Assembly: GCA_031280685.1 (NCBI GenBank)
Contig: JAITGM010000026.1
Location: forward strand, 1,888-65,887
DNA: 64,000 nt
Source of the DNA: Christensenellaceae bacterium
GTDB lineage: Bacteria; Bacillota; Clostridia; Christensenellales; UBA1750
Direction: 5' to 3'
Positions 5,005 through 57,392 of this stretch are shown in pieces. The translations under genes and the position numbers were made by a program. The stretch's first letter is position 1. Each line of letters starts with the position of its first letter. A model generated the notes under the pieces. It was not told where the DNA came from and made no database searches. It saw nothing but the letters and a program-made list of their open reading frames with translations.

Positions 5005-5076
5005 CACAAAGACGCCAAAGGGCCTTGTAATCAAGGCACACAAGAGTTAACATCACAACAACAAGGAGGTGCTTTC

Positions 5077-5352
5077 ATGGCAAAGGATAAAGTCAAAAAA
5101 TATGCTGTCTGTTCCGATTGCGGCAGGGAGATGTCGCCGGGGACCGGCTGCGGTTGCTCACACATTTCGATCAACGGAAAAACATACGAGCGGATTCGGG
5201 CTGGCGATGACCGGGACTTCGACCAGAACATGGAGCCCGGCGATGTGTGCCATGATTGCAACGCAGGTCTTGGCCAGTATCATCACAGTGGTTGCGATGC
5301 CGAGCGTTGCCCGGCCTGCGCAGGACAGCTTCTATCCTGCGATTGCGAATAA
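5077..5352 (+). CDS. Small cysteine-rich protein (Cys-rich VLP-like), 91 aa
   Basis: AAGGAGGTG RBS. Multiple CxxC/CxC pairs (CSDCG, GCGC, CHDC, CPAC, CDC). This position next to the relaxase is typical of Firmicutes mobilisable elements. Confidence 0.65.
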   Translation: MAKDKVKKYAVCSDCGREMSPGTGCGCSHISINGKTYERIRAGDDRDFDQNMEPGDVCHDCNAGLGQYHHSGCDAERCPACAGQLLSCDCE

Positions 5353-5380
5353 CCGCCATCGATACAGAGGAGGTGCGGAC

Positions 5381-5671
5381 ATGAGAATACTATTGAAAAT
5401 ACTGGCGGCGCCCATCATGCTTCTGCTGACGATCATCGTTGCGTTCTGCACGTTCATCATTTCAGTGACAGGGGTTATCTTCTGGATTCTGTCGGTGCTT
5501 GTGTTCGTGGGCGCGGCGCTGCTGTTCTTCTCGCAGCAGATGGCGGGCGGGATCGCGTTCCTGGTGATCGCGTTCATGGTCAGCCCCTATGGGCTTCCGG
5601 CTCTCGCCGCATGGCTCATTGGCATGCTGGACAACGCAAAATATTCCCTGCGGGAGTTTTTGATGAATTAG
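5381..5671 (+). CDS. Small integral membrane protein (about 3 TM segments)
   Basis: ATG 5381 follows AGAGGAGGTG. Hydrophobic sequence MRILLKILAAPIMLLLTIIVAFCTFIISVTGVIFWILSVLVFVGAALLFF. Confidence 0.65.
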   Translation: MRILLKILAAPIMLLLTIIVAFCTFIISVTGVIFWILSVLVFVGAALLFFSQQMAGGIAFLVIAFMVSPYGLPALAAWLIGMLDNAKYSLREFLMN

Positions 5672-5694
5672 TGGTTGGTCGCTTGCACACAGAG

Positions 5695-5719
5695 GGACTC
5701 CATCGCCGTGATGGAGTCC
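5695..5719 (+). repeat. Perfect 10-bp inverted repeat (GGACTCCATC-5 nt-GATGGAGTCC) just upstream of the relaxase gene; terminator or oriT candidate
   Basis: Arms at 5695-5704 and 5710-5719, followed by a T-rich tract. It lies 35 nt before the relaxase start. Confidence 0.5.
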
Positions 5720-5753
5720 AATTCTTTTCTCTGGCGATGAGGAGGTGAAGCCA

Positions 5754-7181
5754 GTGGCGACCACTCACATCACGCCCATACACACCGGCAAGGGGCGCAG
5801 CGTGGCGAAGGCGCTCCGCGATGTGGCCGACTACATGAAGAACCCGCTCAAAACAGAAGACGGCGAACTGATTTCTTCATTTGAATGCGCGCCGGAAAGT
5901 GCCGACACTGAATTCCTATTAACAAAGAGCCGGTACGCATCTCTCACCGGGCGGGATCAGGGTGGGCATGATGTCATCGCCTATCACACCCGCCAGAGTT
6001 TTCTGCCCGGCGAGATCACGCCGGAGGAAGCAAACGCAATCGGGTACGAACTGGCGATGCGCTTCACAAAGGGCCGCTACGCTTTTCTTGTTTGCACTCA
6101 TACGGACAGGTCGCATATCCATAACCATGTGGTTTGGAACTCCACCAGCCTTGACAGCCGGCGGAAGTTTCGGAACTTCATCGGCTCGGCCTTCGCGCTG
6201 CGCCGGGTGAGCGACCACCTCTGTGTAGAGCATGGCTATTCAATCATACAAAACCCGAAGCCCAGCCGGGGTAAAAACTACGCCCGGCACATGTTCCCCG
6301 ATGGCAAACCGCCGTCACATAAGGACGAGCTTCGTGCTGCCATCGACGCCGCGCTCGATAAAAGCCCCGCGACCTTTGATGACTTCATTGCGCTCATGCG
6401 CGCGGCGGGATACACGATAAACACCGCGCGGAAGCACACGACTTTTTTCGCGCCTGGGTGGAAGCAGCCTGCGCGGATGAATACCCTTCGCGGGGATCAC
6501 ACCGAGCAAGCCGTTCGGGAACGCATCGCGGGGACCCGCATTGTTTCTTCTGGCGGTAGAAGTTCGGAGGCCGTGATAGCTGCGCGCCGTCCCAGTCTGC
6601 TCATAGATATCCAGTCCATCATTGCGCAGCGCAAGGGCGCCGGGTATGAACGCTGGGCGAAGATTTTTAATCTCAAACAGGCCGCACAAACGCTCATCTA
6701 TCTTCAGGAGCATGGGCTTGACAGCTACGATGCCCTGCGTGAAAAAACAGCGGCGGCCACCGCCCGCCACAATGAAATATCTGAAAAGGTGAAGAGCCTG
6801 GAGGCCGAACTAAAAGCCAACGGCGAACTGCAAAAGCATATCGTCAACTATTCCAAGACGTGGGATACCTATGCCGCCTACCGTAAGTCCGGCCGCTCGG
6901 ATGCATTCCGGGCACAGCATGAGACTGATATTCTTTTGCATGAGGCCGCCAAGAACGCCTTTGACGATTTGGGGTATGGCAGGCATAACAAGCTGCCCAC
7001 CGTGAAAACATTGCGCGCGGCGTATGCTCCCGCCCTGGAGGAAAAGAAAAAAGCCAACGCCGAGTATCGTCAGGCGAAGGCTGAAATGCGTGAGCTTCTG
7101 TTGGTGAAGGAGAACGTGGACCGGTTGCTTGGAACGGCAGTGCGCGTTCAGGAGCGCGAACAAGAACGGTCCGACCTGTAA
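5754..7181 (+). CDS. Relaxase/mobilisation nuclease (MobA/VirD2 family)
   Basis: Histidine triad HTDRSHIHNHVVW. N-terminus VATTHITPIH. GTG 5754 lies 6 nt after GAGGAGGTG (the ORF track starts at 5745). C-terminus is coiled-coil-like. Confidence 0.9.
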   Translation: MATTHITPIHTGKGRSVAKALRDVADYMKNPLKTEDGELISSFECAPESADTEFLLTKSRYASLTGRDQGGHDVIAYHTRQSFLPGEITPEEANAIGYELAMRFTKGRYAFLVCTHTDRSHIHNHVVWNSTSLDSRRKFRNFIGSAFALRRVSDHLCVEHGYSIIQNPKPSRGKNYARHMFPDGKPPSHKDELRAAIDAALDKSPATFDDFIALMRAAGYTINTARKHTTFFAPGWKQPARMNTLRGDHTEQAVRERIAGTRIVSSGGRSSEAVIAARRPSLLIDIQSIIAQRKGAGYERWAKIFNLKQAAQTLIYLQEHGLDSYDALREKTAAATARHNEISEKVKSLEAELKANGELQKHIVNYSKTWDTYAAYRKSGRSDAFRAQHETDILLHEAAKNAFDDLGYGRHNKLPTVKTLRAAYAPALEEKKKANAEYRQAKAEMRELLLVKENVDRLLGTAVRVQEREQERSDL

Positions 7182-24102: not shown

Positions 24103-24605
24103 ACCCCCGATTTTTCGGGATGAGTAGTGAAGGGGAAAAACCATTCCCTTTCACGGCACCTTGACAAACACCGCCCAGCCGGGCGGTCATACCGGCAACA
24201 CCGGGTACGTTACCGCCCGGCGCCGCGCGCGAGGACCCCCACCGGCCGCACACATTCGTGTTGCCGGCCGGGAGGGGTGAGCGCCCGGTCCCCGCTCTCT
24301 TGGGGATTCAGGAAAAAGACGGCGCTGTGCGACAATGATACTTCCCCGAACCTGACTGTACGGGGGCCGCGGTAGTAGGGTTAATTCGCGGCGGAAGCAT
24401 CGCCACGGCTGAAAAAGGCCGCGGGGAGCTTTCATGGGCCAGCCTTTGGCCGTCCGGCATTGCCACAGAACAACATTACTGGTACTCACCGCAAAACTAT
24501 CCAAAAATATTTCATGGTTTTGGCGGCTGAACTACTGCGCTGCGGGGTTCGATCAGGAACCCCACAGCGTACCATTGAGCCGCTAAAGCGGAAAGGAGGG
24601 ACATA
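24103..24605. other. ~500-bp non-coding block, GC-richer than its flanks and packed with hairpins; candidate structured RNA or recombination/regulatory region
   Basis: No convincing ORF on either strand. Nested stems include CCGGGCGG...CCGCCCGG (24179-24220), CCGGCCGCACACATTCGTGTTGCCGGCCGG (24242-24271) and CTGCGGGGTTC-GATCAG-GAACCCCACAG (24540-24567). Confidence 0.4.
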
Positions 24606-26978
24606 TTGGACACTCCTGCATGTATAAACGAAATTAACACCACGCTGCCCCAGGGCACGCCCGCAAGATACCTTTCAGCGGGCACACCGCTGTTTTGCGC
24701 CTATGGCTGCGCCCTGCTGGAACGCCGGACGGCAAAAAGCTATGTATACACAGCGGTCAACCTGTCAAACGGCAGATCGGTAATACTCCGGCGCAGTCTG
24801 CGCCCACTGGATGATGGCATGTACCCCGTCATGGCCGAAAAGATACGGGCATCATCCGTTCGCGGCCCCGGGCGTAACGAGGTCGACTCCGCGCCCGGCG
24901 AGAGGATACCCCAGGCAAAACTTGCGGAAGTTCTCGCGCTCATCTTTACGGATGTTCTGCCCAGGTACGGGTATGTTGTGCGCGAAAACCAGATCGGGCT
25001 GGCGAACCACATCCTTGACGCCCTGCGCCGCCGCGCCATATCCCTCGCCGAGTCCGAGGTTGGCACCGGCAAAACCCACGCCTATCTCGCGGCGTCTGTC
25101 CTCGCCAAGCGCGGCCGGCTGAACGATTTCTGGCTGCGGGGGCATTATCCTTCCCAAAGCTACGCAGAAAGCGCGTATATGCCCATTGTGATCGCCACAT
25201 CCAGTATTGCGCTTCAGCGCGCCATCGTAAAAGAATACATCCCCGAATTATCCCGCAGCCTCATGGATCACGATATCATCCGCACACCGCTGACCTTCGC
25301 CGTGCGCAAGGGCAAAGAGCATTATCTGTGCGAAAAACGGCTGCAACAGTTCTATGACGACGCCGACGAGCGGACAAAGCACCTGCTCCACCCCCTGCTG
25401 GATGAAGATGCACCCTGCGACCTGGGCGACTCGAACGGGCTGACACAGTTCATGAAGCGCAAAATCTGTGTGCAGGGAAAGTGTAGCGTGCATTGCCCAG
25501 GCCATTCGTCCTGCCGGTACACCTGTTACCTTGCCGAGGCCAACGACCCGATGGTGGATATACAGGTTACCAATCACAACTATTACCTGGCGGATATATT
25601 TCACCGCGTGAAGGGCAAACGGCCACTTCTGCCACACTACCAGCTTGTAGTCATTGACGAGGCACACAAGTTTTTGCAAGCGGCCCGGCAGATGTACGGC
25701 CTGGAGCTCGCGGAGGCAAGCATGCTCTCGCTTGTAGAGGGCATACACAGCATTGTGAGCGGAAAATCGGACACCGGCGTCAACGTCCACAGGCTTGCGA
25801 AGAAGCTGGGGGGCCAGAACAAGCAACTTTTTCAGCGCCTGCGTGAGAATACCCCGTGCGTGGAGGATGACGAGACGGAACGCTTTGCCGCCGTTATTGA
25901 CGAACAGGCACAGCGGCATTTGAAGAACATATCGGGCATCGCGGCTGACCTTACCATCGCCATGAATAACAGTTATGTGGTACCACGCTTTATGGATCGT
26001 AAATCGCAGATACTATGGGAACTTGGACGCCTGGAGGAAACGGCCGCCGCGTTGCAGAAGCGCGACGGCCTTATTTGTTGGCTGGAGCAGTCCGATGGAG
26101 CCGCCGTCGGCGATGCAAAACTCTGTGCCATTCCCAAGAACCTGGACGAGCGGCTGCATGAGGATATCTGGAACGCCGGTATCCCCATCATACTGACGTC
26201 CGGCACCCTGTCTGCTGCCGGGGACTTCAGCCGCACAAAGCACTCGCTTGGCATTGCCCGCATGGATGAGCATCGGGTGATGGAGACCAGCAAGCCTTCG
26301 CCCTTTGATTACCGTCAAAATACGTTGCTGTATATCAGCAACGCCGTTCCTTTCCCGGACTACAAGGACAGGGCATATCTGGTGGCAGTGGCGGACGAGG
26401 TCGAACGGCTGGTTCATGCATCTCATGGATACGCCGCCATTCTGTTCACATCATACAGTGCGATGGGGATGGTGTATTCCATGCTCCGGGCACGCGGCCT
26501 GCCGTTCCCGCTGTTTCAGATGGGTCGGCGGGACACTGCCGCATTGGAAAAATTCAAGGCCAACGGCAACGGCGTCCTGTTCGCGGCGGGTGCACTGTGG
26601 GAGGGCATAGATATCCCAGGAGACGCCCTTTCCATGCTCATCATCGTCAAGCTGCCCTTCGCCGCGCCCGATCCCATTGGCGAGTATGAAAAGGCGTTGT
26701 ACGGCGGCATGGAGGCTTACAAAGCGAAGGCCCTTGTGCCTGACATGCTGGTGAAACTCAAGCAGGGTTTCGGTCGGCTGATCCGCACCGAAACTGACAC
26801 CGGCATCTGTGCCATCCTGGATTGGCGTGCCCGCAGGGGTGCGGCCTACCACAGCCGTGTGTTGGCGGCCCTGCCATCCTGCCGGATGACGGACTGCATC
26901 GTTGATGTTGAACGGTTCATAGCGGAAAAGAAGCAGCCTGGCTATTTTATACAGCACGGGCTTTCGTTTTCAGCTTGA
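24606..26978 (+). CDS. DinG/XPD (Rad3)-family ATP-dependent DNA helicase with an Fe-S cluster domain
   Basis: Walker A ESEVGTGKTHAYL and DEAH box VVIDEAHKF, with seven Cys between them (CVQGKCSVHCPGHSSCRYTC). C-terminus LFAAGALWEGIDIPG and GFGRLIRTETDTG. TTG start follows GGAAAGGAGGG. Confidence 0.85.
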   Translation: MDTPACINEINTTLPQGTPARYLSAGTPLFCAYGCALLERRTAKSYVYTAVNLSNGRSVILRRSLRPLDDGMYPVMAEKIRASSVRGPGRNEVDSAPGERIPQAKLAEVLALIFTDVLPRYGYVVRENQIGLANHILDALRRRAISLAESEVGTGKTHAYLAASVLAKRGRLNDFWLRGHYPSQSYAESAYMPIVIATSSIALQRAIVKEYIPELSRSLMDHDIIRTPLTFAVRKGKEHYLCEKRLQQFYDDADERTKHLLHPLLDEDAPCDLGDSNGLTQFMKRKICVQGKCSVHCPGHSSCRYTCYLAEANDPMVDIQVTNHNYYLADIFHRVKGKRPLLPHYQLVVIDEAHKFLQAARQMYGLELAEASMLSLVEGIHSIVSGKSDTGVNVHRLAKKLGGQNKQLFQRLRENTPCVEDDETERFAAVIDEQAQRHLKNISGIAADLTIAMNNSYVVPRFMDRKSQILWELGRLEETAAALQKRDGLICWLEQSDGAAVGDAKLCAIPKNLDERLHEDIWNAGIPIILTSGTLSAAGDFSRTKHSLGIARMDEHRVMETSKPSPFDYRQNTLLYISNAVPFPDYKDRAYLVAVADEVERLVHASHGYAAILFTSYSAMGMVYSMLRARGLPFPLFQMGRRDTAALEKFKANGNGVLFAAGALWEGIDIPGDALSMLIIVKLPFAAPDPIGEYEKALYGGMEAYKAKALVPDMLVKLKQGFGRLIRTETDTGICAILDWRARRGAAYHSRVLAALPSCRMTDCIVDVERFIAEKKQPGYFIQHGLSFSA

Positions 26979-27407: not shown

Positions 27408-28628
27408 GTGATGATAGTGCATACGGAGAAATCGTATCAAACACATACAACTTCTCAAACGAGAAAATACGGCGAGGGAAGCGTATTCCTTCGCAGTGAC
27501 GGAAGGTGGGCTGCCAAGTACAAAGATGATTCTTTACCACGACCAATAACACGGTATGCCAAGACGGAGGCCGACGCCAAGCGCAAGCTGCGTGAGTTGA
27601 AGAAGGAAGTGGCCAGAGGTGTTCTTCCGACCAAGAAGGTTTTTGTGCCCGACTACATTGAGCGGTGGCTCTTTACGGTCAAGTGCAACACCATCCGGGG
27701 GACCACGCTGGACAGCTACGAGGAAGTGTTGAACATACACATCCGTCCGAAGCTGGCGCACCGGCAGATGGGCAATGTTACCTCGATGGAGCTTCAGGAA
27801 CTTCTCAACGCGACAATCGGGAAGATGGCCTACCGCAGTGCAAAATGGATCAGGGATTGTTTGAAGTTTCCTTTCGAGTATGCGGAAGCGTGCGGGGATA
27901 TTCAGCGCAATCCTATGGCCATCGTGGAACTGCCAAGCAGCGAGTTTTACATCGAGCCCAAGGATATAGAGATTCTCGAAGCGGACGAAGTCGAGGCGTT
28001 TGAAAAAATCGCCAAGGAAAAGTGCTTTGAGAAAAACTTCAGGCTGGCGCCCTTGATCGTTTTCCTACTTAAGACCGGCCTGCGCTGGGGCGAACTCATG
28101 GCATTGCCATTAGACCTGGTATCTTGGGACTTGAAACGGCTGGCCGTGGAGAAGACGCTGACGAAGGTGAAGAATCGTAACAGGAAGAGCGATGGCGAAC
28201 GGAAAGAGATGTGGGAGTTGCACCCGCCGAAAACGCCTAACAGTATACGGGACGTCCCTATGAGCCAGAGCGCGATTGAATACCTGCAACTGTTTTTAGA
28301 GGTTCGGCAGCATTTCAACCGCGCATTCGACCATACGAGTCCCTATATCTGCAAAACGCCGAGGGGCTGGGTATCCTATACTTCGTTTTACAACTGCGTA
28401 TTCCGTATGCTGGAAGAAGCCGGTATCGACAAAGACATTAGCGGGATGCATTTTACAAGGCATACATTCGCTACACGGCTGCTGCAGCTACTGATTGAAA
28501 ACGCTATCAACCCGGAGTACGCATCGAAGGTTCTTGGTCACAAGAATGTATCGACCACGCTCGACTACTACAGCCATTTATTAAAGAGAGACATGGTAAA
28601 TGGTCTAGAGTGCATGGAAGCGGTATAG
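27408..28628 (+). CDS. int: Tyrosine site-specific integrase
   Basis: Catalytic residues are visible: LRWGEL (Arg), HFTRHTFATRLL (H-x-x-R) and LGHKNVSTTLDYYSH (His, Tyr). N-terminal SAM-like domain. It is the last gene of the element. Confidence 0.92.
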   Translation: MMIVHTEKSYQTHTTSQTRKYGEGSVFLRSDGRWAAKYKDDSLPRPITRYAKTEADAKRKLRELKKEVARGVLPTKKVFVPDYIERWLFTVKCNTIRGTTLDSYEEVLNIHIRPKLAHRQMGNVTSMELQELLNATIGKMAYRSAKWIRDCLKFPFEYAEACGDIQRNPMAIVELPSSEFYIEPKDIEILEADEVEAFEKIAKEKCFEKNFRLAPLIVFLLKTGLRWGELMALPLDLVSWDLKRLAVEKTLTKVKNRNRKSDGERKEMWELHPPKTPNSIRDVPMSQSAIEYLQLFLEVRQHFNRAFDHTSPYICKTPRGWVSYTSFYNCVFRMLEEAGIDKDISGMHFTRHTFATRLLQLLIENAINPEYASKVLGHKNVSTTLDYYSHLLKRDMVNGLECMEAV

Positions 28629-28666
28629 GCTTTTCAGCCCGTTAGAAACCGTTTCAAAACGGAAGA

Positions 28667-28746
28667 AATCTGACACAAATAGGTGTAACATTGGTGTCAG
28701 ATTCATCTGGAAAGAGCGAGAACCCCCGTAAATAGGGGGTTCTCGC
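28667..28746. repeat. Two strong hairpins between the integrase stop and the composition switch (element end / attR-proximal region)
   Basis: AATCTGACAC 28667-28676 pairs with GTGTCAGATT 28694-28703. GCGAGAACCCCC 28716-28727 pairs with GGGGGTTCTCGC 28735-28746. Confidence 0.5.
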
Positions 28747-28791
28747 AAGAAAAGTGGCTGCCGTGCGGGCACGCTTTTTTGCGCAGGGGGC

Positions 28792-28838
28792 TTGACAGGC
28801 GCGGTCTATTGCGATAGTATTAGTCTATCGTGATAGAC
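28792..28838 (+). promoter_or_regulatory. Promoter TTGACA-17-TAGTAT overlapped by two GTCTAT...ATAG(A/T)AC dyads (probable BlaI-family operator)
   Basis: TTGACA 28792-28797 and TAGTAT 28815-28820. Dyads are GTCTATTGCGATAGTA 28804-28819 and GTCTATC-GT-GATAGAC 28823-28838. Confidence 0.55.
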
Positions 28839-28860
28839 CAATGAGGTAGGAGGGGTTCGC

Positions 28861-29226
28861 ATGGCGGAGGGGAAGAGGCTTTTTGAAGCGGAGTACAGGT
28901 TTGCACTGCTCGTTTGGGAAAACGAGCCGATTCATTCGCGAAAGCTGGCGGAGCTTAGCGCGCAGGCGCTGGGCTGGAAGCGCACGACGAGCTACACCGT
29001 GCTCAAGAAGCTCTGCGATAGAGGCATTTTGCGGAACGAGGGCGCGATGGTCAGTTCCATCGTGAAAAAGGAGGAAGCGCAGGGCTTTGAGAGCGCCGCC
29101 GTGGTGGAAAAGAGCTTTGGCGGCTCGCTGCCGAGCTTTATCGCGGCCTTTCTGCACACGGGGACGCTCACGCCTGAGGAAATCGACGAGATTCGCGCGA
29201 TGATCGACGCGCAGGCAAAGGGGTGA
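28861..29226 (+). CDS. BlaI/MecI/CopY-family winged-helix repressor
   Basis: EAEYRFALLVWENEPIHSRKLAELSAQALGWKRTTSYTVLKKLCDRGIL is the typical penicillinase-repressor fold pattern. RBS is GGTAGGAGGGG. Confidence 0.8.
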   Translation: MAEGKRLFEAEYRFALLVWENEPIHSRKLAELSAQALGWKRTTSYTVLKKLCDRGILRNEGAMVSSIVKKEEAQGFESAAVVEKSFGGSLPSFIAAFLHTGTLTPEEIDEIRAMIDAQAKG

Positions 29227-29258
29227 GGGGCATGGAGTAGCTGCCCGGGCTGTTCGTT

Positions 29259-30404
29259 GTGGTTTTGCGCATGAGCCTCGCCGGCAGCGGCGCCATCCTG
29301 GCGGTCTGCGCGGCGCGGCTTTGCCTGCGCCGGGCGCCGAAGGGCATTTCATACGCGCTATGGGCTGCCGTGCTGTTCAACTTGCTTTGCCCCGTTAAGC
29401 CGTCGAGCCCGATCTCCTTCGCGCCGGAGGGCGAGGTGGGAATCGGGCTGGTCGGGGAGGGGGCCGGCTTTACCGCCGCGCACATGGCATTGGCCGTGCT
29501 TTGGCTGCTTGGCGCCGCCGCCATGCTCGCCCGCGCCTTGCTTGAGGGGCATAGGCTGAAAAAGCGTCTTGGCCCGGCAGTGCGGCTAAACGATGGGGTT
29601 TACGAGGCGGAAGGGGTTTCTACTCCCTTCGTGTGGGGGCCTTTGCGGCCGAAGGTGTATCTTCCCAAGAATATGAAGCCAGAGTGGCGCCCCCTCATCC
29701 TCGCTCACGAGCGGGTTCATCTTCGCAGGCGCGACGATTTGCTCGGCATCCTCAGCTTTTTCGCCCTCGCCCTGCACTGGTTTAATCCACTTGCCTGGCT
29801 GGCCTACAGGCTGATGCTCGGCGACCGCGAGAGCGCTGCCGACGAGGCCGTTTTGCGCAATGCCGGCGCCGATATCCGAAGGGACTACGCTCTGGCGCTG
29901 CTCTGCCTTGCGGGCGAAGCGGCCATGCCAGCGCGGCCCGCGTTTGGCGGGCAAAATTTGAAGGAAAGGGTGAAGAAGGTGCTCGAATTTCAAAAACAAG
30001 GCTTGGCCGCCCGGATCGCGGCCGCGGCGTTTGCGGCCCTGCTGGGGCTGGCGCTGCTTTTTGGCTGGGCGGGGAGCAGAAGGCCGCCGGCCATGGAGAA
30101 TTCCATGCTGCGCGGCCTGGTTTGGCGCGGGGCGCAAAGCGGCATGGGTCTACCCGCGAACGCCGACGCACCCAGGCTTTTGGGCACGATTGGGATGCCG
30201 GGGCTAGAGCCCCATGAGGGGGAAGCCAGGCCAGAGGAAGCCCAGGTCATCGTCTTTGCGGAAAAGGATGAGAAATCCTTTGAGATTTACTTTGGGGAAG
30301 AGCACGTTCTGCGCGTGACGAAGGGTTTTGGCGAGGAGCAATTTGAGCTGACCGACCCGCAGGCGCTGCAAGCGCTATTGGAGGGGATGAAGGAGGGCGC
30401 GTAA
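29259..30404 (+). CDS. BlaR1-like M56 membrane metalloprotease signal transducer without a penicillin-binding sensor domain
   Basis: HExxH motif (LAHERVHLRRRDD), N-terminal TM segments, and genetic coupling to the BlaI-like gene. The C-terminal ~110 aa have no recognisable PBP motifs. Confidence 0.75.
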   Translation: MVLRMSLAGSGAILAVCAARLCLRRAPKGISYALWAAVLFNLLCPVKPSSPISFAPEGEVGIGLVGEGAGFTAAHMALAVLWLLGAAAMLARALLEGHRLKKRLGPAVRLNDGVYEAEGVSTPFVWGPLRPKVYLPKNMKPEWRPLILAHERVHLRRRDDLLGILSFFALALHWFNPLAWLAYRLMLGDRESAADEAVLRNAGADIRRDYALALLCLAGEAAMPARPAFGGQNLKERVKKVLEFQKQGLAARIAAAAFAALLGLALLFGWAGSRRPPAMENSMLRGLVWRGAQSGMGLPANADAPRLLGTIGMPGLEPHEGEARPEEAQVIVFAEKDEKSFEIYFGEEHVLRVTKGFGEEQFELTDPQALQALLEGMKEGA

Positions 30405-30628
30405 GGTGGATTCGCTTCCCCCGCGCTGAGTTTGCCCCGGCCATGGGCCATCGGGACACGCTCCAAAGGGCCGGGATGAGTTCGGGATGGAACCCGGCCC
30501 GTCCATTCCCGCTGCGCTGGACCTCAAGTTTTCGCCGCGCTATTCCGTGAACACGGGGCGGCGGCAGACGCAAAAAAATGGCCCGCCGCCCTTGCTGAAG
30601 GGAAGCGGGCTCGTTTTTTTGGCCTTTT

Positions 30629-32275
30629 TTATTGATCCATCGAGCTGCGGATCTGCGCGCGGATGATCTTGCCGGAGGTGGTTTTGGGCAGGGCGTCGAT
30701 ATAGCGCACTACGCGGGGGTATTTATAGGGCGCGGTGAGTTTCTTCACATAGTCCTGAATCTCCTTTGTGAGCGCCGGCGTGCCCTCGTGGCCGGGGGAA
30801 AGGACGATGGTGGCACAGACCACCTGGCCGCGGATTGGATCGGCTGCCGCGGTGATGGCGCACTCGAGCACGGCCGGGTGGGTGAGCAAAACCGACTCGA
30901 TTTCGAATGGGCCGATGCGGTAGCCCGAGCACTTGATGACATCATCGTTGCGGCCCACATACCAATAGAAGCCGCTTTCGTCCATCCAGGCGACATCGCC
31001 GGTGTGGTAGACCGCGGCATAGTGGCGGCTGACGCGGCCATCCGAGTAATAGCCGATGGTCAAGCCCGGCGGCAGGCCCCGGTCGAGCCCGCGGATGACG
31101 ATCTCGCCCTCCTCGCCGACGGGGCACTCGCGGCCCTCTTCATCGACGATTGCGATGTCGTAAAGGGGGGAGGGCTTGCCCATGGAGCCCGGGCAGGAAT
31201 CGAACCAGGCGAAGTTGCCTACCAACACGATGCCCTCGCTTTGGCCAAAGCCATCGTGGATGGGTAGGCCGGTGAGACGCTCGAACTCGCGGTTGACCTC
31301 GGGCGCCAGCGGTTCGCCGGCCGTGCAGCAGTGGCGGACCGACATAAAATCTTCCCGGGTGAGACCTTCGCGCATGATGAAGCGGTAAATCGTCGGCGGG
31401 ACGCAAACCGTGGTCGGTTTTTCTTGCCGAAGGACGTTGATGAGGTTCCTCGCGTTGAACTTGAGATCCTGATCATAGCCAAGGATCGCGGTGCCCGCAA
31501 TCCACTGCCCATAGAGGCAGCCCCAGCCGAACTTGGCCCAGCCAGAATCCGACGCGGTGAAGTGCAGGCCGCCATTTTCGACCTGCTGCCAGTACTTGGC
31601 CGTGACGATGTGGCCCAGGGGGTAGGTTTGGTCGTGCATGACCATCTTGGGCATGCCGGTGGTGCCGGAGGTGAAGTAGCTCAAGAGCAAATCGCTGTTT
31701 TTCAGATCAGGCGCGGCGTATTCCTCGCCCGCCGCCTCTATGCCCGTGGAATAGTCGAGCCAGCCCTCGCGGCTGCCCCTGCAAAGCGCCAGGAATTCAA
31801 GCCCCTGGCACTGCGGGAGCGCCTCCTCGATTTGCGAGAGGCTCCATTCTTCGTTGCAGGCGATGACCATGCGGATGCCGGCGATGGCCGCGCGGTAGGC
31901 GATATCCTTGGCGGTGAGCTGAATTGACGCGGGGATGAGCACCGCGCCCAGGCGGTGCAGCGCCAGCGCGGTGACCCAATACTCCCAATGGCGCTTGAGC
32001 TGCACGAGCACCATATCGCCTTTTTTGATGCCCAGATTTTGCAGGTAACTCGCCGCCTTTTTGCTCAGGGACGAGATTTCGGCAAAGCTGAACTCGCGGC
32101 GCTGGCCGTGGTCGTCAAGCCAGGCGAGGGCGCGCTTGGCAGGCTCTGCCTTGGCCCATTCATCCACGACATCGCGAGGGTAAGAGAAGCTTTCGGGCAC
32201 GAGGATCTCGAAATTCTTCTTGTAATCGTCGTAAGAATCGAAGCTTGTTTTGGCTAAGAAGCGGGAAAGCAGCAT
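30629..32275 (-). CDS. AMP-forming medium-chain acyl-CoA synthetase (MACS/ACSM-like)
   Basis: YFTSGTTGMPKMV, GYRIGPFEIES and PKTTSGKIIR adenylation motifs. ACSM-like N-terminus (FSYPRDVVDEWA). ATG 32275 lies 9 nt after AGGAGG. Confidence 0.85.
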   Translation of the reverse strand: MLLSRFLAKTSFDSYDDYKKNFEILVPESFSYPRDVVDEWAKAEPAKRALAWLDDHGQRREFSFAEISSLSKKAASYLQNLGIKKGDMVLVQLKRHWEYWVTALALHRLGAVLIPASIQLTAKDIAYRAAIAGIRMVIACNEEWSLSQIEEALPQCQGLEFLALCRGSREGWLDYSTGIEAAGEEYAAPDLKNSDLLLSYFTSGTTGMPKMVMHDQTYPLGHIVTAKYWQQVENGGLHFTASDSGWAKFGWGCLYGQWIAGTAILGYDQDLKFNARNLINVLRQEKPTTVCVPPTIYRFIMREGLTREDFMSVRHCCTAGEPLAPEVNREFERLTGLPIHDGFGQSEGIVLVGNFAWFDSCPGSMGKPSPLYDIAIVDEEGRECPVGEEGEIVIRGLDRGLPPGLTIGYYSDGRVSRHYAAVYHTGDVAWMDESGFYWYVGRNDDVIKCSGYRIGPFEIESVLLTHPAVLECAITAAADPIRGQVVCATIVLSPGHEGTPALTKEIQDYVKKLTAPYKYPRVVRYIDALPKTTSGKIIRAQIRSSMDQ

Positions 32276-32289
32276 GGGGCGAACCCTCC

Positions 32290-32638
32290 TTTGGGAATTG
32301 AGCGTTCGAAAAACGGCCTTCATCCTAAATCATTAGGACGAAGGCCGTTCGCGGTACCACCTAAATTCGCAGAAGGCAGGGCCTTCGTGCGCGCTCTGTG
32401 GGCACGGGCCGAAATCTGGCCGATGCCCCGCCCCCATAACGGCGGGCAATCCGTCGTGACCTACTCGCCTTCGCTTTGGGCCATGCCGCTCCAGGACTAC
32501 TTCTTCGGGCTCCTTCCAGGGCGCTCGCACCTCATACGCCCCTCTCTTTGGAAAGAGGAATCCGAATACTCCTTCCCTTCATCGCGTTTCTGACGATTGA
32601 ATTGCCGATAGCATACTACGCTGAAGGGGGGCTGTCAA
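32290..32638 (-). promoter_or_regulatory. T-box leader (candidate specifier GUA, Val) with its promoter, controlling the acyl-CoA synthetase
   Basis: Minus strand: TTGACA (32638-32633), 17 nt, TATGCT (32615-32610). GCGAUGA...AGUA K-turn/S-turn, AAAGAGAG bulge, GGUGCGA distal loop, GAA-GUA-G (GUA = 32500-32498). T-box core AAUUUAGGUGGUACCGCG (32367-32350). Terminator hairpin plus U5 (32349-32308). Confidence 0.8.
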
Positions 32639-32666
32639 GCCCCTCCCTGTGTGAAGTTTTGGGTTT

Positions 32667-33215
32667 TCAGCGCAGGGAGGGATCCGGGTAGGCGGCCCTG
32701 GCGCCGCCCACCAGCGGGGGGCGCGAAAAGGCTGCGTTCAGGTGCGCCCGGCCGATGGAAAGCCCGAGGCGCAGCGGCACGGCCACCCGGCGAAGATGCA
32801 TGCCGATGAGGGTATCCCCAATATCGAGCCCGGCCCTGGCCTGAATGGTTTCGGCCACCGAAGGCTCGCCCAAGTGCAGGTAGTAGGCAGTGGCCAGCGA
32901 ACCGCCGGCATGGGGCTGCGGAAGAACGCAGACCTCGGTGAGGCAAAGGCGCTCGAGCGCTTCGCGCGGGAGGACGAGCGAGCGGTTGAGGTGCTCGCAG
33001 CACTGCACGGCCAGGGCCGCCCCGAAGGGGGAAAGGCCATCCAGCAGGCCATGGAGGATCTCGGCCGCGGTTTCGGGCGAACCCGCGCTGCCGATGCGCT
33101 CGCCGATGACTTCGGAAGTCGAGCAGCCGACGACGACCAGCTCGCCGGGCTTAATATGTGCCTGTTCGCAAAGGGACTTGATGGCGAGCAGGCTCTCTTC
33201 ACGGATGCTTGGCAT
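32667..33215 (-). CDS. TIGR01440/UPF0340 (DUF436) family protein
   Basis: ELVVVGCSTSEV...IG...LAVQCCEHLNRSLV...AGGS is the family pattern. ATG 33215 follows AAGGAGGG. The N-terminal part of the 32667..33425 ORF is discarded. Confidence 0.7.
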   Translation of the reverse strand: MPSIREESLLAIKSLCEQAHIKPGELVVVGCSTSEVIGERIGSAGSPETAAEILHGLLDGLSPFGAALAVQCCEHLNRSLVLPREALERLCLTEVCVLPQPHAGGSLATAYYLHLGEPSVAETIQARAGLDIGDTLIGMHLRRVAVPLRLGLSIGRAHLNAAFSRPPLVGGARAAYPDPSLR

Positions 33216-33359
33216 AAAAACAGGCCCTCCTTCAAGGCGAAGGCGCGCGGCGGCCGCCACGGGCTTAAAAACGATGGAAAACAGTATACCATAAAAGCCG
33301 TGTTGACAGCAAAAATGAAATTGCGGTATCTTGGGTATAACAAAAAAGGGGGAAGCGCG

Positions 33360-52004: not shown

Positions 52005-52280
52005 TTGACTTTTCGCAAAATCCTGCTATGATGGACTTCAACCCCGACGACGGGAAGGAGTACCCCGTTTTTCGCGCCAAAGAGAGGCTGCCGATGGCTG
52101 AAAGGCGGCCGCGCAAGGGAAGATGGGCGGAAGGTCGTCCCCGAGGGAAAGAGGCGAAGGGTTCCCCCTGCGTAACCCCTTTCGGTTCGCGCCCGTTATA
52201 GCGCAAGAGGAGCACAAATAAAGGTGGTACCACGGCGGCGCCCGTCCTTTTTGAAGGGATGGCGCCGTCTTTCTTTTTTC
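52005..52280 (+). promoter_or_regulatory. T-box leader (specifier GUC, Val) with promoter, controlling valS
   Basis: TTGACT 52005-10, 16 nt, TATGAT 52027-32. GACGA K-turn, AGUA 52059-62, AAAGAGAG 52079-86, GGCUGAAA distal loop, GUC 52134-36 followed by G. Core AAAGGUGGUACCACGG 52220-36. Terminator ends in a T-run at ~52280. Confidence 0.88.
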
Positions 52281-52332: not shown

Positions 52333-54981
52333 ATGCAAAAGGGCGGCGCGTCCGAAATGCCAAAGACCTACGACCCCGCGGCCGTAGAAGAGAGGCTCTA
52401 TCAAAAATGGGAAAACAACGGCTATTTTAAGCCGGCCGAAACCAAGCCGGAAGGCAAAAAGGCCTTTTCTATCGTGATGCCGCCGCCCAACATCACGGGG
52501 CAGCTGCACATGGGCCACGCGATGGACGGCGCCCTGCCCGACATCCTGATTCGCTACCACCGCATGCTCGGGGACGACACGCTTTGGCTGCCCGGCACCG
52601 ACCACGCCTCGATCGCCACCGAGGTCAAGATCGTGGAGCAGCTCGCCAGGGAAGGGATCGACAAGCGCGACCTGGGGCGCGAGAACTTCCTCAAGCGCGC
52701 CTGGCTCTGGCGCGACGAGTACGGCGGAAGGATCGTCGAGCAGCAGCGCAAGCTGGGCCTCTCGTGCGACTGGTCGCGCGAGCGCTTCACCATGGACGAG
52801 GGCTGTTCCAAGGCCGTGCTCGAGGTCTTCGTGCGGCTTTATCAGGACGGACTGATCTATCGTGGCGACCGTATCATTAACTGGTGCCCCGAGTGCCAGA
52901 CCGCCCTTTCCGACGCCGAGGTCGAATACGATGAAGAAGCTTCCTTCCTCTGGCATATCCGCTACCCGGCGGCGGACGGCGGCGAGGGGCTCGTCGTGGC
53001 GACGACGCGGCCCGAAACCATGCTGGGCGATACCGGCGTGGCCGTGAACCCGGATGATGAGCGCTATGCCGCGCTGATTGGCAAGAACCTTCTTTTGCCG
53101 ATCCTAAATCGCGAAATTCCCGTCGTTGCCGATGAGTACGTCGAAAGGGAGTTCGGCACCGGAGCCGTGAAGATGACACCCGCGCACGACCCGAACGATT
53201 TTGAGGTTGCGCAGCGGCACGATTTGCCCGTGCTGCGCGTGATGAACGACAACGGCACGATGAACGCCCTCTGCGGCCCCGAATTCGAGGGCCTGAGCGC
53301 CGCCGAGGCTCGCAAAAAGGTGGTTTCGCGGCTGCAAGAACTGGGCCTGCTCGTCAAGGCCGAGCCTTACGCGCACAACGTGGGCCATTGTTACCGCTGC
53401 CAGCACACGGTGGAGCCCCTGGTTTCGACGCAGTGGTTCGTGAAGATGAAGCCCCTGGCCGAGCCCGCAGTTGAGGCCCTCAAATCAGGCAAGATCCGCT
53501 TCGTGCCCGAGAGGATGACAAAGACCTACTACAACTGGATGGAAAACATCCGCGATTGGTGCATTTCGCGCCAGCTCTGGTGGGGGCACCGCATCCCCGC
53601 CTATTATTGCGCGGCCTGCGGGCACATGGAGGTATCCAAGATCGCGGTCACGAAGTGCGAACGCTGCGGCTCCGCCGAGATCAGGCAGGATGAGGACGCG
53701 CTCGATACCTGGTTTTCCTCCGCGCTCTGGCCGTTTTCGACCCTTGGCTGGCCCGATCAAAGCAGCGACCTTGCGCGCTTCTACCCCAACACCCTGATGA
53801 TCATGGGCTACGACATCCTCTTTTTCTGGGCCGCGCGCATGATCTTTTCTGGGCTGTATAACACCGGGGAGGCGCCTTTCAAAGACCTGCTCTTCCACGG
53901 CCTGGTGCGCGACGGCCAGGGCAGGAAGATGTCAAAATCCCTCGGCAACGGCATCGACCCACTCGAGATCGTCGATCGCTTCGGGGCCGATGCCCTGCGC
54001 TTTTCGCTGGTTAACAGCGTTTCCCCGGGCAACGATATGCGCTTTTCTGAAGAAAAGGCGGAAGCCGCGCGCAACTTTGCCAACAAGGTTTATAACGCCT
54101 GCCGCTTTGCGCTGATGAACCTTGAGGGCGAAATCGACGAAAAGGGCGAAAAGAGCCTGGCCGACCGCTGGATTCTGACTGCCTTCGCACGTTGCGCCAG
54201 GGCCGTGACCGAGCACCTCGACCAGCTCGACATCGCCATGGCCGCGCAGAAGCTCTATGACTATATCTGGTCCGAGCTTTGTGACTGGTACCTCGAGCTT
54301 GCCAAGGCCGCGCTCTATGGCGGGGACGAGCGCGCTGCGGCAGCCGCGCGGGGCACGCTGCGCACCGTGCTCGAGGGCACGCTCAAGCTCCTGCACCCTT
54401 TCATGCCCTTTTTGACCGACTCGATCTACGAATACCTTCCCGGTGCCGCGGAGGATTCGCTCATGATCGCCCCCTGGCCGCAGGGTTCTCAGGAATACCC
54501 CGAGGCGGCCGCCCAGATGGAGCGCATCATGGATGTCATCCGCGCGGTGCGCAACCTGCGCGCCGAAATGAACGTGCCTCCGTCCAGAAAGGCGCAAATC
54601 CACCTGGTCTTGAGCGAGCCCGGGGATGAAAAGGCCTTTCTGGGCGCCGAAAGCTATTTCGCAAGGCTCGCCTCGGCCTCTTTAATCCGGGTTGTGTCTG
54701 CCGCCGAGCTGCCCAAAAACGCGGTTTCCGCCATCTGCCCGGCCGCGCAGGCCTATCTGCCCATCGAGGAACTGGTGGATCTGGAAAAGGAAAAGGCTCG
54801 CCTGCAAAAGGAGATCGGCAACCTGCAGGGCGAGATTGTGAGGGCGGAAGGCAAGCTGCAGAACCAGGGCTTTATCGCCAAGGCGCCGCAGAGCGTGGTC
54901 GAAGGGGAAAGGGCCAAGCTGGCAACCAACCGCGCCATGCTCGAAAAGCTGCAGGACCAGCTCGCGGGGCTAGGGGCTTAG
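52333..54981 (+). CDS. valS: Valine--tRNA ligase
   Basis: PPPNITGQLHMGHA (HIGH), KMSKSLGN (KMSKS), editing domain, and C-terminal coiled coil. RBS is AAGGAGG. Confidence 0.97.
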   Translation: MQKGGASEMPKTYDPAAVEERLYQKWENNGYFKPAETKPEGKKAFSIVMPPPNITGQLHMGHAMDGALPDILIRYHRMLGDDTLWLPGTDHASIATEVKIVEQLAREGIDKRDLGRENFLKRAWLWRDEYGGRIVEQQRKLGLSCDWSRERFTMDEGCSKAVLEVFVRLYQDGLIYRGDRIINWCPECQTALSDAEVEYDEEASFLWHIRYPAADGGEGLVVATTRPETMLGDTGVAVNPDDERYAALIGKNLLLPILNREIPVVADEYVEREFGTGAVKMTPAHDPNDFEVAQRHDLPVLRVMNDNGTMNALCGPEFEGLSAAEARKKVVSRLQELGLLVKAEPYAHNVGHCYRCQHTVEPLVSTQWFVKMKPLAEPAVEALKSGKIRFVPERMTKTYYNWMENIRDWCISRQLWWGHRIPAYYCAACGHMEVSKIAVTKCERCGSAEIRQDEDALDTWFSSALWPFSTLGWPDQSSDLARFYPNTLMIMGYDILFFWAARMIFSGLYNTGEAPFKDLLFHGLVRDGQGRKMSKSLGNGIDPLEIVDRFGADALRFSLVNSVSPGNDMRFSEEKAEAARNFANKVYNACRFALMNLEGEIDEKGEKSLADRWILTAFARCARAVTEHLDQLDIAMAAQKLYDYIWSELCDWYLELAKAALYGGDERAAAAARGTLRTVLEGTLKLLHPFMPFLTDSIYEYLPGAAEDSLMIAPWPQGSQEYPEAAAQMERIMDVIRAVRNLRAEMNVPPSRKAQIHLVLSEPGDEKAFLGAESYFARLASASLIRVVSAAELPKNAVSAICPAAQAYLPIEELVDLEKEKARLQKEIGNLQGEIVRAEGKLQNQGFIAKAPQSVVEGERAKLATNRAMLEKLQDQLAGLGA

Positions 54982-55202: not shown

Positions 55203-55540
55203 TTGACATTTCCCGCGCTGGCGGCTATACTTTGGCTAATTTCATAGCATCAAACCGTTGAGGCGGAGGTAAAAACGCGATACGCCGGCAAAGAGAGCGG
55301 GGGCGGCTGGGAACCCCGCGCGAAACGGCGCGTTAAATGGGCCGCCGAGGGCGCGGTCAACGGCCAAGCGGCCTAGTATTCCGTGACGCGCAGGGCCGCG
55401 TGAGCGCCCGGGGCATCCACAAGGGGTTTTCCCTTCGCTTCGGTGCCCGCTCAAGGCGGAAGAACTTCCGCGAACTAAGGTGGTACCGCGGGCAAGAACC
55501 CGTCCTTAAAGCAAGGCTTTTCGGGCGGCTTTTTTTGTTG
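55203..55540 (+). promoter_or_regulatory. T-box leader (candidate specifier UGG, Trp) with promoter, controlling iorA-iorB-aryl-acid CoA ligase
   Basis: TTGACA 55203-08, 17 nt, TATACT 55226-31. UGA/GA K-turn, GGCGG/CCGCC helix, AGGUA, AAAGAGAG 55290-97, GGCUGGGAA loop, UGG 55338-40 plus G. Core AACUAAGGUGGUACCGCGG 55473-91. Hairpin plus U7 ending ~55537. Confidence 0.8.
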
Positions 55541-55565: not shown

Positions 55566-57392
55566 TTGGCTGAAATCAGGCTTTTGATGGGCAACGAGGC
55601 GATCGCGCTGGGCGCGCTGCGCGCCGGGCTGCGCTTCGCGTCCGGCTACCCGGGCACACCCTCGTCAGAGATTTTGGAAGCCCTCGCCAAAGAGGGGCGC
55701 GAGGGTGTCTACGCGGAATGGTCGGTCAACGAAAAGACGGCGCTTGAAGCCGCCGCCGGGGCCGCCATGGCCGGCGCGCGCGCGCTGGTGACGATGAAGC
55801 AGGTCGGGCTGAACGTGGCTTCGGATCCGCTGATGAGTCTCAACTACGTGGGTGTGAAGGGGGGGATGGTCATCGTCGCGGCTGACGACCCGGGCCCGCT
55901 TTCCTCGCAGACCGAGCAGGATACCCGCCATTTTGGCCAATTCGCTAAATTGCCGGTTTTTGACCCTTCCTCGCCGGAAGAGGCCTACTTAATGATTGCC
56001 GATGCCTTCGAGCTTTCGGAAAAAATCCATAGGCCGGTGCTGTTTCGCCCCACGACCAGGGTCTGCCATGGCTACGCCTCGGTTGAGCTGCTGCCCGATC
56101 TGCCCCAAAAGGCGCCCGAGGGCTTCACGAAGGACGGCGGCGCCTGGGTGATCTTCCCGCGGCTCGCCTACGAAAACCACCTGCTCATCGAGGACGGCTT
56201 GGAGGCGTTGGCCGATGAATGGTCGGCCTACCGCTTTAACGCCCTAAGCGGCGGGGGAAGGGCGAGCAAGAAGGGCATCGCGGCCGGCGGAGTGAGCTTC
56301 GCCCACGCGGCCGAGGCCCTCGAAGGCACGGCGCAATCCGGCGCTGAATGCAGGCTGCTCAAGGTCGCGACCTATCCGATTGCGGAGCGGATGGCGCTGG
56401 ATTTTCTTGCGGGGCTAAAAGAGGTGCTCGTGGCCGAGGAGCTCGACCCCGTAATCGAGCTAGAACTGCTCCGCCTTTGCGGCAAGCACGGGCTGAAGGT
56501 CAAGATCAGGGGCAAGGGCGATCAGACCATGCCGCGCGCGGGCGAAAACAGCGCGGCGGGGGTTAAAAAGGCGATTTTTGCCTTCCTGGGGCTGAAAGAA
56601 GAACCGGCCGAGGTCTTAAACGACGAAGCCCCGGTCCTGCCCGTTCGGCCTCCGGTGCTCTGCGCGGGCTGCCCCCATCGGGGCTCCTTCTTCGCGGTCA
56701 AGGAGGCTTGCAAAGGGAAAAAAGCCGTGTTTTCAGGCGACATTGGCTGCTACACCTTGGGCAACGCGGCCCCGCTGAATATGGTCGATACCTGCCTGTG
56801 CATGGGGGCCGGCCTGGCGCAGGCGCAGGGCTTGGCCAAAATCGAACCCGAAGTCGCACACTTCGCCTTCATCGGCGATTCGACTTTTTTCCACACCGGC
56901 ATGCCCGGGGTGCTCAACGCGGTCTATAACGGCGCCGACGTGATCCTTTGCGTGCTCGATAATTCCACCACCGCGATGACCGGAGGCCAGCCGCACCCAG
57001 GCACGGGGAAAACCCTGATGGGCAAGCCTGCCGCGCAGGCCGATATTTACGGGGTTTTGCAGGCCTTGGGGGTGCGGAGCATCCGGCGGGTGAACCCCTT
57101 TGATCTAAGCGCCGCCAAGGCGGCGGTGAGGGAGGCCCTTCAAGAGAGCGGCGTGCGCGCGCTCTTGTTCGAAGGCCCCTGCATCGCCCTGGCCAAGAAG
57201 AAGCCCGCCCTTTTGGTGCTGGAAGGCTGCGTCGCTTGCGGCCGCTGTGCGCGGGAGCTGGGCTGCCCCGCGATTGCCTGGGAAAAGGGCCAAAAGGCGG
57301 GAATCGACCCGCTGCTTTGCACGGGCTGCGGCCTGTGCGCGGGGCTTTGCCCGGCGGGCGCCATCGCGGAAGGGGGCCAAAACCATGCTTAA
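55566..57392 (+). CDS. iorA: Indolepyruvate:ferredoxin oxidoreductase alpha subunit
   Basis: LLMGNEAIALGALRAG...GYPGTPSSEI. TPP-binding region GDSTFFHTGMPGVLNAVYN. C-terminal 2x[4Fe-4S] ferredoxin Cys motifs (CVACGRC...C; CTGCGLCAGLC). Confidence 0.9.
   Translation: MAEIRLLMGNEAIALGALRAGLRFASGYPGTPSSEILEALAKEGREGVYAEWSVNEKTALEAAAGAAMAGARALVTMKQVGLNVASDPLMSLNYVGVKGGMVIVAADDPGPLSSQTEQDTRHFGQFAKLPVFDPSSPEEAYLMIADAFELSEKIHRPVLFRPTTRVCHGYASVELLPDLPQKAPEGFTKDGGAWVIFPRLAYENHLLIEDGLEALADEWSAYRFNALSGGGRASKKGIAAGGVSFAHAAEALEGTAQSGAECRLLKVATYPIAERMALDFLAGLKEVLVAEELDPVIELELLRLCGKHGLKVKIRGKGDQTMPRAGENSAAGVKKAIFAFLGLKEEPAEVLNDEAPVLPVRPPVLCAGCPHRGSFFAVKEACKGKKAVFSGDIGCYTLGNAAPLNMVDTCLCMGAGLAQAQGLAKIEPEVAHFAFIGDSTFFHTGMPGVLNAVYNGADVILCVLDNSTTAMTGGQPHPGTGKTLMGKPAAQADIYGVLQALGVRSIRRVNPFDLSAAKAAVREALQESGVRALLFEGPCIALAKKKPALLVLEGCVACGRCARELGCPAIAWEKGQKAGIDPLLCTGCGLCAGLCPAGAIAEGGQNHA

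Follow-up and report, generated by a model that had tools for sequence, protein, structure and literature searches.

A T-box leader RNA precedes an acyl-CoA synthetase gene on the minus strand of contig JAITGM010000026.1 from a Christensenellaceae bacterium, within a stretch of 64,000 nucleotides that was analysed as a whole and is referred to below as the window. Comparative sequence evidence gives good support to the assignment of this leader as a T-box riboswitch of class I that acts by transcription attenuation and is specific for tRNA-Val. The gene under its control probably encodes an isobutyrate-CoA ligase, induced through the Val T-box, that would feed reductive carboxylation to valine. 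The substrate of the ligase, its coupling to a 2-oxoisovalerate:ferredoxin oxidoreductase (VOR) and its physiological role are what we infer from the leader and from the relatives of the enzyme. As an RNA the leader is an ordinary example of a well-known class, and the enzyme comes from a known family. The apparent novelty lies in the target: the T-box controls an acyl-CoA synthetase, and paralogs of this enzyme carry Val and Ile labels.

The T-box leader and its specifier codon

The transcription unit is composed of the following elements.

32610..32638, minus strand: sigma-70-type promoter with TTGACA (32638-32633), a 17-nt spacer and TATGCT (32615-32610), 10/12 consensus matches
32331..32591, minus strand: full-length T-box leader RNA of the transcription-termination type (Rfam RF00230)
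32488..32585, minus strand: stem I, from sequence and Rfam alignment
32498..32500, minus strand: specifier codon GUA (Val), with the S-turn GAA (32503-32501) before it and the purine G (32497) and UCCU after it
32334..32367, minus strand: T-box core with antiterminator, AAUUUAGGUGGUACCGCGAACGGCCUUCGUCCUA, from the Rfam alignment
32367-32350, minus strand: T-box core, AAUUUAGGUGGUACCGCG, from the Rfam alignment
32309..32349, minus strand: intrinsic terminator, a perfect 18-bp hairpin followed by U5 (dG -31.2 kcal/mol, z -6.7)
32285..32290, minus strand: ribosome-binding site AGGAGG, 9 nt ahead of the ATG (32275), read from the sequence
30629..32275, minus strand: gene of a MACS-type (medium-chain acyl-CoA synthetase) ligase, AMP-forming, 548 aa, ATG at 32275, from the translation
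30572..30610, minus strand: terminator 3' of the ligase gene, a GC-rich hairpin followed by U7 (dG -32.8 kcal/mol, z -3.1)

A first-pass annotation, made from the letters of the sequence, had proposed a T-box leader on the minus strand, and a scan with the Rfam covariance model confirmed it: RF00230 aligns to this strand over its entire length (model positions 1-219) with 104.9 bits (E 4.1e-22), above the gathering score of 93 bits. The promoter TTGACA-17-TATGCT was likewise found, upstream of the leader. No second promoter-like site is present within 30400-32800, and the TTGACA box is also kept in the aligned leaders of three relatives (L005-L007).

Stem I contains a K-turn (GC-GAUGAA / GGA-GC), a specifier loop whose 5' side reads AGGAGUA and whose 3' side reads GAA-GUA-G, an AGAGA bulge at 32547-32543 and a GGUGCGA distal loop at about 32536-32524. 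The first-pass description of K-turn, AGUA, GAA-GUA-G, bulge and distal loop thus stands, with one correction: the 4-bp helix given there as AGGG/UCCU is shifted by one base and is actually GGGA/UCCU, its UCCU strand lying at 32496-32493. In an RNAalifold analysis of 17 orthologous stem I sequences, 13 of the 15 predicted pairs show compensatory double changes, and the loop motifs AGUA and GAA-GUA-G are invariant across these sequences.

The T-box core and a terminator ending in U5 ahead of the AGGAGG and ATG were also present as originally described, at 32367-32350 and 32349-32309. None of 200 shuffles gave a hairpin as stable as the leader terminator. The arm UUCGUCCUA serves both in the 5' half of the terminator and in the 3' half of the antiterminator; formation of one structure therefore excludes the other. 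Orthologous leaders carry equivalent hairpins followed by U-runs, and GGUGGUA is invariant in every Val-type leader. The UGGU of the T-box bulge (32359-32356) would form base pairs with the 3'-terminal ACCA of an uncharged tRNA. That UGGU suits the A73 discriminator of tRNA-Val, as the first-pass annotation remarked, is consistent with the assignment but is no discriminating evidence, A73 being shared by most tRNAs. A full-model score above gathering, the motifs of stem I and a UGGN antiterminator competing with a terminator are the features by which the leader belongs to RF00230.

In solved T-box stem I structures (glyQ), the S-turn GAA leads straight into the codon, after which come one purine and then the closing helix. 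Applied to the present loop, this placement rule gives GUA as the specifier. The rule was examined in relatives of the ligase by scanning one genome per GTDB species, which yielded 80 loci. A family profile (nhmmer) located a homologous T-box directly upstream of the orthologous ligase gene in 13/80 loci. A strict regular expression for the T-box core recovered 3/80 loci only, and its counts were discarded in favour of nhmmer. Homologous leaders also precede the ligase genes of the two closest relatives (L082 and L083, 77-78% protein identity) and of L084/85, and another was found on a contig, one of whose encoded proteins is identical to a protein that NCBI names from Angelakisella massiliensis. 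The 20 ligase-linked leaders compared include those of the window, L001-L008, L016, L025, L028, L068, L080, L082-L084 and L210. GUA with one purine after it adjoins the closing helix in 19 of them, the purine being A in L003, and the remaining leader, L028, has GUC at this place.

The string GAAGUAG also contains AGU and UAG, and a specifier other than Val, such as AGU (Ser) or another shifted register, could in principle be read from it. Two natural variants separate these readings. In L008 the loop is GAA-C-GUA-G (GAACGUAG), where an additional C ahead of GUA leaves no AGU, so the AGU reading is ruled out. The loop of L028, GUC-A (GAAGUCA), lacks UAG yet keeps a synonymous Val codon, and UAG was rejected as well.

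The genes found behind the same loop point in the same direction. Public metagenome contigs were scanned for the pattern AGUA, 55-70 nt, GAAGUAG-N-C-NNN-GAG, 110-140 nt, GGUGGUA, and at least 120 loci were obtained. Among the matches listed, the closing 4-bp helix is in register in 114/120. The first long downstream open reading frame (ORF) among these matches encodes the large subunit of the biosynthetic acetolactate synthase (ilvB) in 66/120 (TIGR00118, 728 bits, cutoff 538), valyl-tRNA synthetase (valS) in 17/120 (NF009687, 988 against 738) and a member of the present ligase family in 4/120. As the matches were defined by the GAAGUAG loop, these counts show the gene targets of that loop type and are not unbiased frequencies. 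In L025 (9652-14253), a single Val T-box precedes the ligase gene and then valS, the two genes forming an operon with a 14-nt gap.

Conservation of GUA or GUC, the same loop ahead of ilvB and valS, and the L025 operon together make the Val codon GUA a well-supported reading of the specifier from sequence comparison. The Val assignment of the first-pass annotation, which had named another codon, for example AGU, as the reading that would overturn it, is therefore upheld by the evidence of L008, L028 and the ilvB and valS loops. A non-Val specifier, or a decayed and non-functional T-box, is hardly tenable, since the genes behind this loop type are ilvB and valS and since all motifs and the terminator are intact and covarying. 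From the leader we further infer that the ligase itself belongs to the Val pathway.

Val-specific T-box leaders of valS and ilvB in Bacillota have the same architecture as the present one, comprising the K-turn, the S-turn specifier loop with GAA-GUA-G, the AG bulge and distal loop, stems II and III, the 14-nt T-box with UGGN and the competing antiterminator and terminator. The difference lies in the target, which here is an acyl-CoA synthetase and falls outside the aminoacyl-tRNA synthetases, classical biosynthetic genes and transporters. Two further T-boxes were met at loci of relatives. One, at L003 15041-15360 (minus strand), is close to the ligase leaders in sequence and has the loop GAA-G-AUG-G (Met). 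The other lies 3' of the ligase gene in L039; it is part of pheST and was set aside as unrelated to the ligase.

The ligase, its clade and its paralogs

The ligase has its own terminator, and the next gene beyond it (BlaR1-like, 29259-30404) is on the opposite strand; the unit is therefore monocistronic. No biosynthetic genes lie beside it, in agreement with its earlier description as a stand-alone gene. The translation contains the Pfam domains PF00501 (AMP-binding) and PF13193 (AMP-binding_C), together with all core motifs of the ANL superfamily (TSGTTGMPK, GFGQSE, YHTGD, GRNDDVIKCSG and PKTTSGK). The closest solved structure is 3ETC, the MacsMa enzyme of M. acetivorans (E 3e-182, 48% identity over the full length), followed by a 4-hydroxybutyrate-CoA ligase and then by human ACSM2A (E 2e-88). 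This ranking bears out the earlier naming of the product as an AMP-forming MACS/ACSM ligase.

The top NCBIfam family is MbcS (NF047394), with 395.5 bits against a cutoff of 850, a score so far below the cutoff that the ligase is not taken as an MbcS ortholog. Models for acetate-CoA ligase are also missed (TIGR02188, 233.6 against 725; NF003313, 324.5 against 729), and the label 'acetyl-CoA synthetase' carried by some homologs has no support from these scores. By its sequence the gene is classed as a MACS/ACSM-type ligase of the ANL superfamily, an ortholog of neither MbcS nor Acs.

MacsMa, an enzyme of branched short-chain acids, shares with the present ligase the ANL motifs and the tryptophan of its acyl pocket. 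W251 aligns with Trp259 of MacsMa, whose numbering (chain offset +23) was checked against G459/Y460/K461 (PMC10455477), and the glycine of GFGQ, which replaces Trp416 of Acs, is conserved. Near the Trp259 position the segment reads GWAKFGWG in the clade of Val-T-box ligases and GWGKAVWG in that of the Ile-T-box paralogs; in place of the KFGW beside the pocket of the present enzyme, the Ile clade has KAVW and MacsMa has KCVW. The further residues taken to line the acyl pocket of MacsMa are all conserved. MacsMa also differs in being archaeal.

A neighbour-joining tree of 87 family members places all Val-T-box ligases in a single clade, sister to a clade that holds genes linked to VOR; the Ile-T-box paralogs form a separate, deeper clade. 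The sole member of the Val clade without a T-box is L058, in which none was detected even with the search filters off and a divergent LysR-like gene lies upstream.

T-boxes with the Ile codon AUC precede the paralogous ligases in five lineages; loci with such a T-box are L005, L084/85, L086/87, L088/89, L212 and L214. In L005 (5308-8229) and L084/85 (L084 5206-8130), a T-box reading AUC-A is followed by the paralogous ligase gene (5572-7254 in L005) and a D-2-hydroxyacid dehydrogenase gene, which are co-transcribed, and a Val T-box with a Val-type ligase gene comes directly downstream in tandem. The Ile-type paralogs are closer to MacsMa than the Val clade is, at 54-57% identity. No ligase paralog with a Leu specifier was found, as every further paralog looked up carries AUC.

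In 52/80 loci (all within L009-L079), including the sister clade, the gene directly upstream of the ligase encodes a regulator with an XRE-type helix-turn-helix (HTH) domain and a cupin domain, and this gene takes the place of the T-box. The same regulator also occurs at L088, L214 and L215, and it is fused to the ligase in some gene calls (P0129, P0138). L088 carries both the Ile T-box and the cupin regulator.

In 10/80 species-level genomes (L017, L027, L029, L031, L038, L042, L052, L055, L061 and L063), genes of a three-subunit 2-oxoacid:ferredoxin oxidoreductase lie just before the HTH-cupin regulator gene, at about -4200 to -600 from the ligase. The alpha subunit passes the VorB model NF005507 (539 bits against 399). 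The order of the block is conserved as P-loop protein, vorB-type alpha, beta, gamma, HTH-cupin regulator and ligase; the P-loop protein has no NCBIfam hit. The block from VOR through regulator to ligase is present in both Bacillota and Eggerthellaceae.

Other features of the family concern its acetyltransferase and DUF436 neighbours. A C-terminal GNAT acetyltransferase is fused to the ligase in many members (P0065, P0070, P0074 and others), among them a ligase behind a Val T-box at L003 10001-12181. The window and its two closest relatives instead have GNAT as a gene of its own, just upstream on the other strand. The fusion might mean self-regulation by lysine acylation or a step of N-acyl transfer. 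The T-box promoter is immediately preceded, on its own strand, by a DUF436/TIGR01440 gene (32670-33218, minus strand), and this adjacency is kept in L082 and L083.

Proposed valine salvage and competing explanations

On the regulatory side, where support is strong, the favoured explanation is that of an ordinary T-box: transcription would begin at the TTGACA/TATGCT promoter, and the specifier loop of stem I would offer GUA to the anticodon of tRNA-Val(UAC) while the AG bulge and distal loop dock the elbow of the tRNA. If the tRNA were uncharged, its free ACCA end would pair with UGGU and stabilise the antiterminator, and RNA polymerase would enter the gene. If it were charged, the 18-bp terminator would form and transcription would end about 35 nt ahead of the start codon. 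The ligase would most likely activate isobutyrate to isobutyryl-CoA, which a VOR encoded elsewhere would convert to 2-oxoisovalerate by reductive carboxylation, and a transaminase would complete the path to valine. Valine starvation would in this way switch on the salvage of valine from isobutyrate, a volatile fatty acid abundant in the gut.

The anabolic direction of this scheme is the only one in which the predicted induction, by uncharged tRNA-Val, of an AMP-forming and essentially irreversible ligase would make sense. Isobutyrate as substrate and a role in valine salvage had already been proposed in the first-pass annotation. Three independent lines of comparative evidence now lend them support, namely the clade of Ile-T-box paralogs, the VOR adjacency in 10/80 genomes and the ligase-valS operon of L025. 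The company of the Val T-box, valS and ilvB, supports a reading in terms of valine synthesis, as does the partner of the Ile paralog, a D-2-hydroxyacid dehydrogenase that makes 2-oxo acids.

The chemistry itself has a long history. Labelling studies of the 1960s-70s (cited in PMC7356843) showed that branched volatile fatty acids are the source from which anaerobes of the rumen and gut form valine, isoleucine and leucine. For valine, its synthesis from isobutyrate in anaerobes was established by labelling (Allison & Peel 1971, also cited in PMC7356843). The reductive carboxylation route of Allison and co-workers, which uses VOR, has the order proposed here: the acid yields first the acyl-CoA, then the 2-oxo acid and finally the amino acid. 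It differs from the present case in that the VOR link is here a predicted one, with no VOR gene inside the 64-kb window. In the literature consulted on the volatile-acid route, no assignment was found of a gene for the activating step or of its control.

A parallel to the proposed regulation is offered by a unit in the same window, described below, that consists of a Trp T-box, iorAB and a PaaK-like ligase gene. The logic is the same, an amino-acid T-box controlling the CoA ligase of the matching fermentation acid. In the Trp unit, however, the oxidoreductase and ligase genes are co-transcribed, whereas the Val T-box controls the ligase alone.

Several observations weigh against valine salvage from isobutyrate. 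Within the 64-kb window there is no VOR, ilvE or other gene of branched-chain amino acid metabolism, and among the loci of the T-box clade there is no conserved neighbour. The VOR adjacency sits in the sister clade and not in the T-box clade, and it is equally compatible with an acyl-CoA pool shared for lipid primers. The best NCBIfam family is MbcS, whose cutoff is missed. MacsMa prefers the C5 acid 2-methylbutyrate and not isobutyrate (PMC10455477), and the preference of the present ligase for isobutyrate is a prediction from sequence. Finally, full-text literature searches, whose scope did not extend to the surveys Vitreschak 2008 and Gutierrez-Preciado 2009, returned no paper linking a T-box with an acyl-CoA synthetase. 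A comparative T-box study (PMC2494555) makes no mention of acyl-CoA synthetase targets.

The supply of lipid primers is the main rival to valine salvage, though an unlikely one. It retains the Val T-box and the substrate, and proposes that FabH takes isobutyryl-CoA as the primer of iso-even branched-chain fatty acids, on the model of MbcS in S. aureus. At low levels of valine, from which isobutyryl-CoA normally derives, isobutyrate would be scavenged for the membrane and not for valine. MbcS, the best-scoring NCBIfam family here, is an ATP-dependent ligase selective for external isobutyrate and 2-methylbutyrate, and its role is to supply primers of branched-chain fatty acids (PMC10026030). The VOR adjacency of orthologs would fit this role too, as two routes converging on one acyl-CoA. 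MbcS differs from the present ligase, however, in feeding fatty-acid synthesis and in not being reported as T-box regulated, and a score of 395 against 850 separates the two. In the comparative study PMC2494555, the members of T-box regulons serve to restore tRNA charging, as aminoacyl-tRNA synthetases, biosynthetic enzymes and transporters do, and in L025 the ligase shares its operon with valS. The Ile-type paralog, moreover, shares a transcript with a D-2-hydroxyacid dehydrogenase, an enzyme whose products are 2-oxo acids and not primers.

It is also improbable that the enzyme is a broad short- to medium-chain acyl-CoA synthetase, acting on all branched volatile acids or on propionate and butyrate, for which the Val T-box would be one of several starvation inputs. 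MacsMa shows that such breadth occurs, as it adenylates C3-C8 acids and completes the full two-step reaction with 2-methylbutyrate (PMC10455477). Against this breadth, Val and Ile T-boxes are each tied to their own paralog clade, which argues for divided specificities, and the clades differ systematically beside the Trp259 position (GWAKFGWG against GWGKAVWG). Conservation of all the pocket residues that we take to be those of MacsMa is compatible with a broad enzyme, and the sequence accordingly gives no proof of a narrower pocket.

A catabolic role, with the ligase running in reverse or with valine or isobutyrate degraded for energy, is very improbable: VOR enzymes are often oxidative in amino-acid fermenters and some syntrophs can use AMP-forming ligases in the reverse direction, but the switch would then induce valine breakdown exactly at valine shortage, and the association of this T-box type with valS and ilvB points the opposite way.

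Valine salvage by an isobutyrate-CoA ligase can be extended to a wider proposal, for and against which we regard the case as evenly balanced. T-box specifiers would be natural substrate labels on MACS paralogs of gut and rumen Clostridia, marking the Val clade (GUA/GUC) for isobutyrate and the Ile clade (AUC) for 2-methylbutyrate. Together these ligases would form a hitherto unassigned regulon, controlled by tRNA charging, in which reductive carboxylation of volatile fatty acids restores the branched-chain amino acids, and which is paralleled by the Trp T-box-iorAB-ligase unit; the HTH-cupin regulator would have given way to the T-box in this lineage. As an annotation a T-box is unusually explicit, since its codon names the amino acid whose shortage the gene answers. 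The labels provide candidate isobutyrate- and 2-methylbutyrate-CoA ligases, and with Angelakisella massiliensis as a cultured carrier the genes behind the old pathway and their control become testable. If the proposal is true, models of metabolic cross-feeding in gut and rumen would be improved, and the labels 'acetyl-CoA synthetase' and 'AMP-binding protein', the latter a generic one, would be corrected on genes of this family.

Other elements of the window

Two further T-boxes and their genes were found on the plus strand.

52038-52252, plus strand: second Val T-box, specifier GUC-G (77.4 bits, under the gathering score; E 3e-16)
52333-54981, plus strand: valS, with valyl-tRNA synthetase domains
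55249-55510, plus strand: Trp T-box, specifier UGG-G (66.5 bits, under the Rfam threshold; E 2e-13)
55566-57392, plus strand: iorA (TIGR03336, IOR_alpha, 672 against a cutoff of 651)
ending at 57981, plus strand: iorB-like gene, then a PaaK-like aryl-acid CoA ligase gene to 59200, both hits under their cutoffs

The leader of valS has a specifier loop whose 3' side, GAA-G-GUC-G, is nearly identical to that of the ligase leader, a likeness already pointed out in the first reading of the sequence. As the codons differ (GUC ahead of valS, GUA ahead of the ligase), the two Val T-boxes of the window may sense different tRNA-Val isoacceptors. The Trp case to which that reading had compared the ligase was recovered as a UGG T-box ahead of iorA, iorB and the PaaK-like ligase gene. 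The arrangement suggests salvage of tryptophan from indoleacetate by reductive carboxylation.

Elsewhere in the window, a dinG RNA motif (RF03082, 71 bits) is located at 24334-24433 (plus strand), upstream of a DinG-like helicase gene at 24606-26978 (plus strand). Signs of mobile elements occur in two regions. The first, at 1203-7181, contains genes for a topoisomerase, DUF4314/DUF3849/DUF4316 proteins and a MobA/VirD2 relaxase, and the second, downstream of the ligase at 27408-30404, contains a phage-type integrase gene and a BlaI/BlaR1-like pair.

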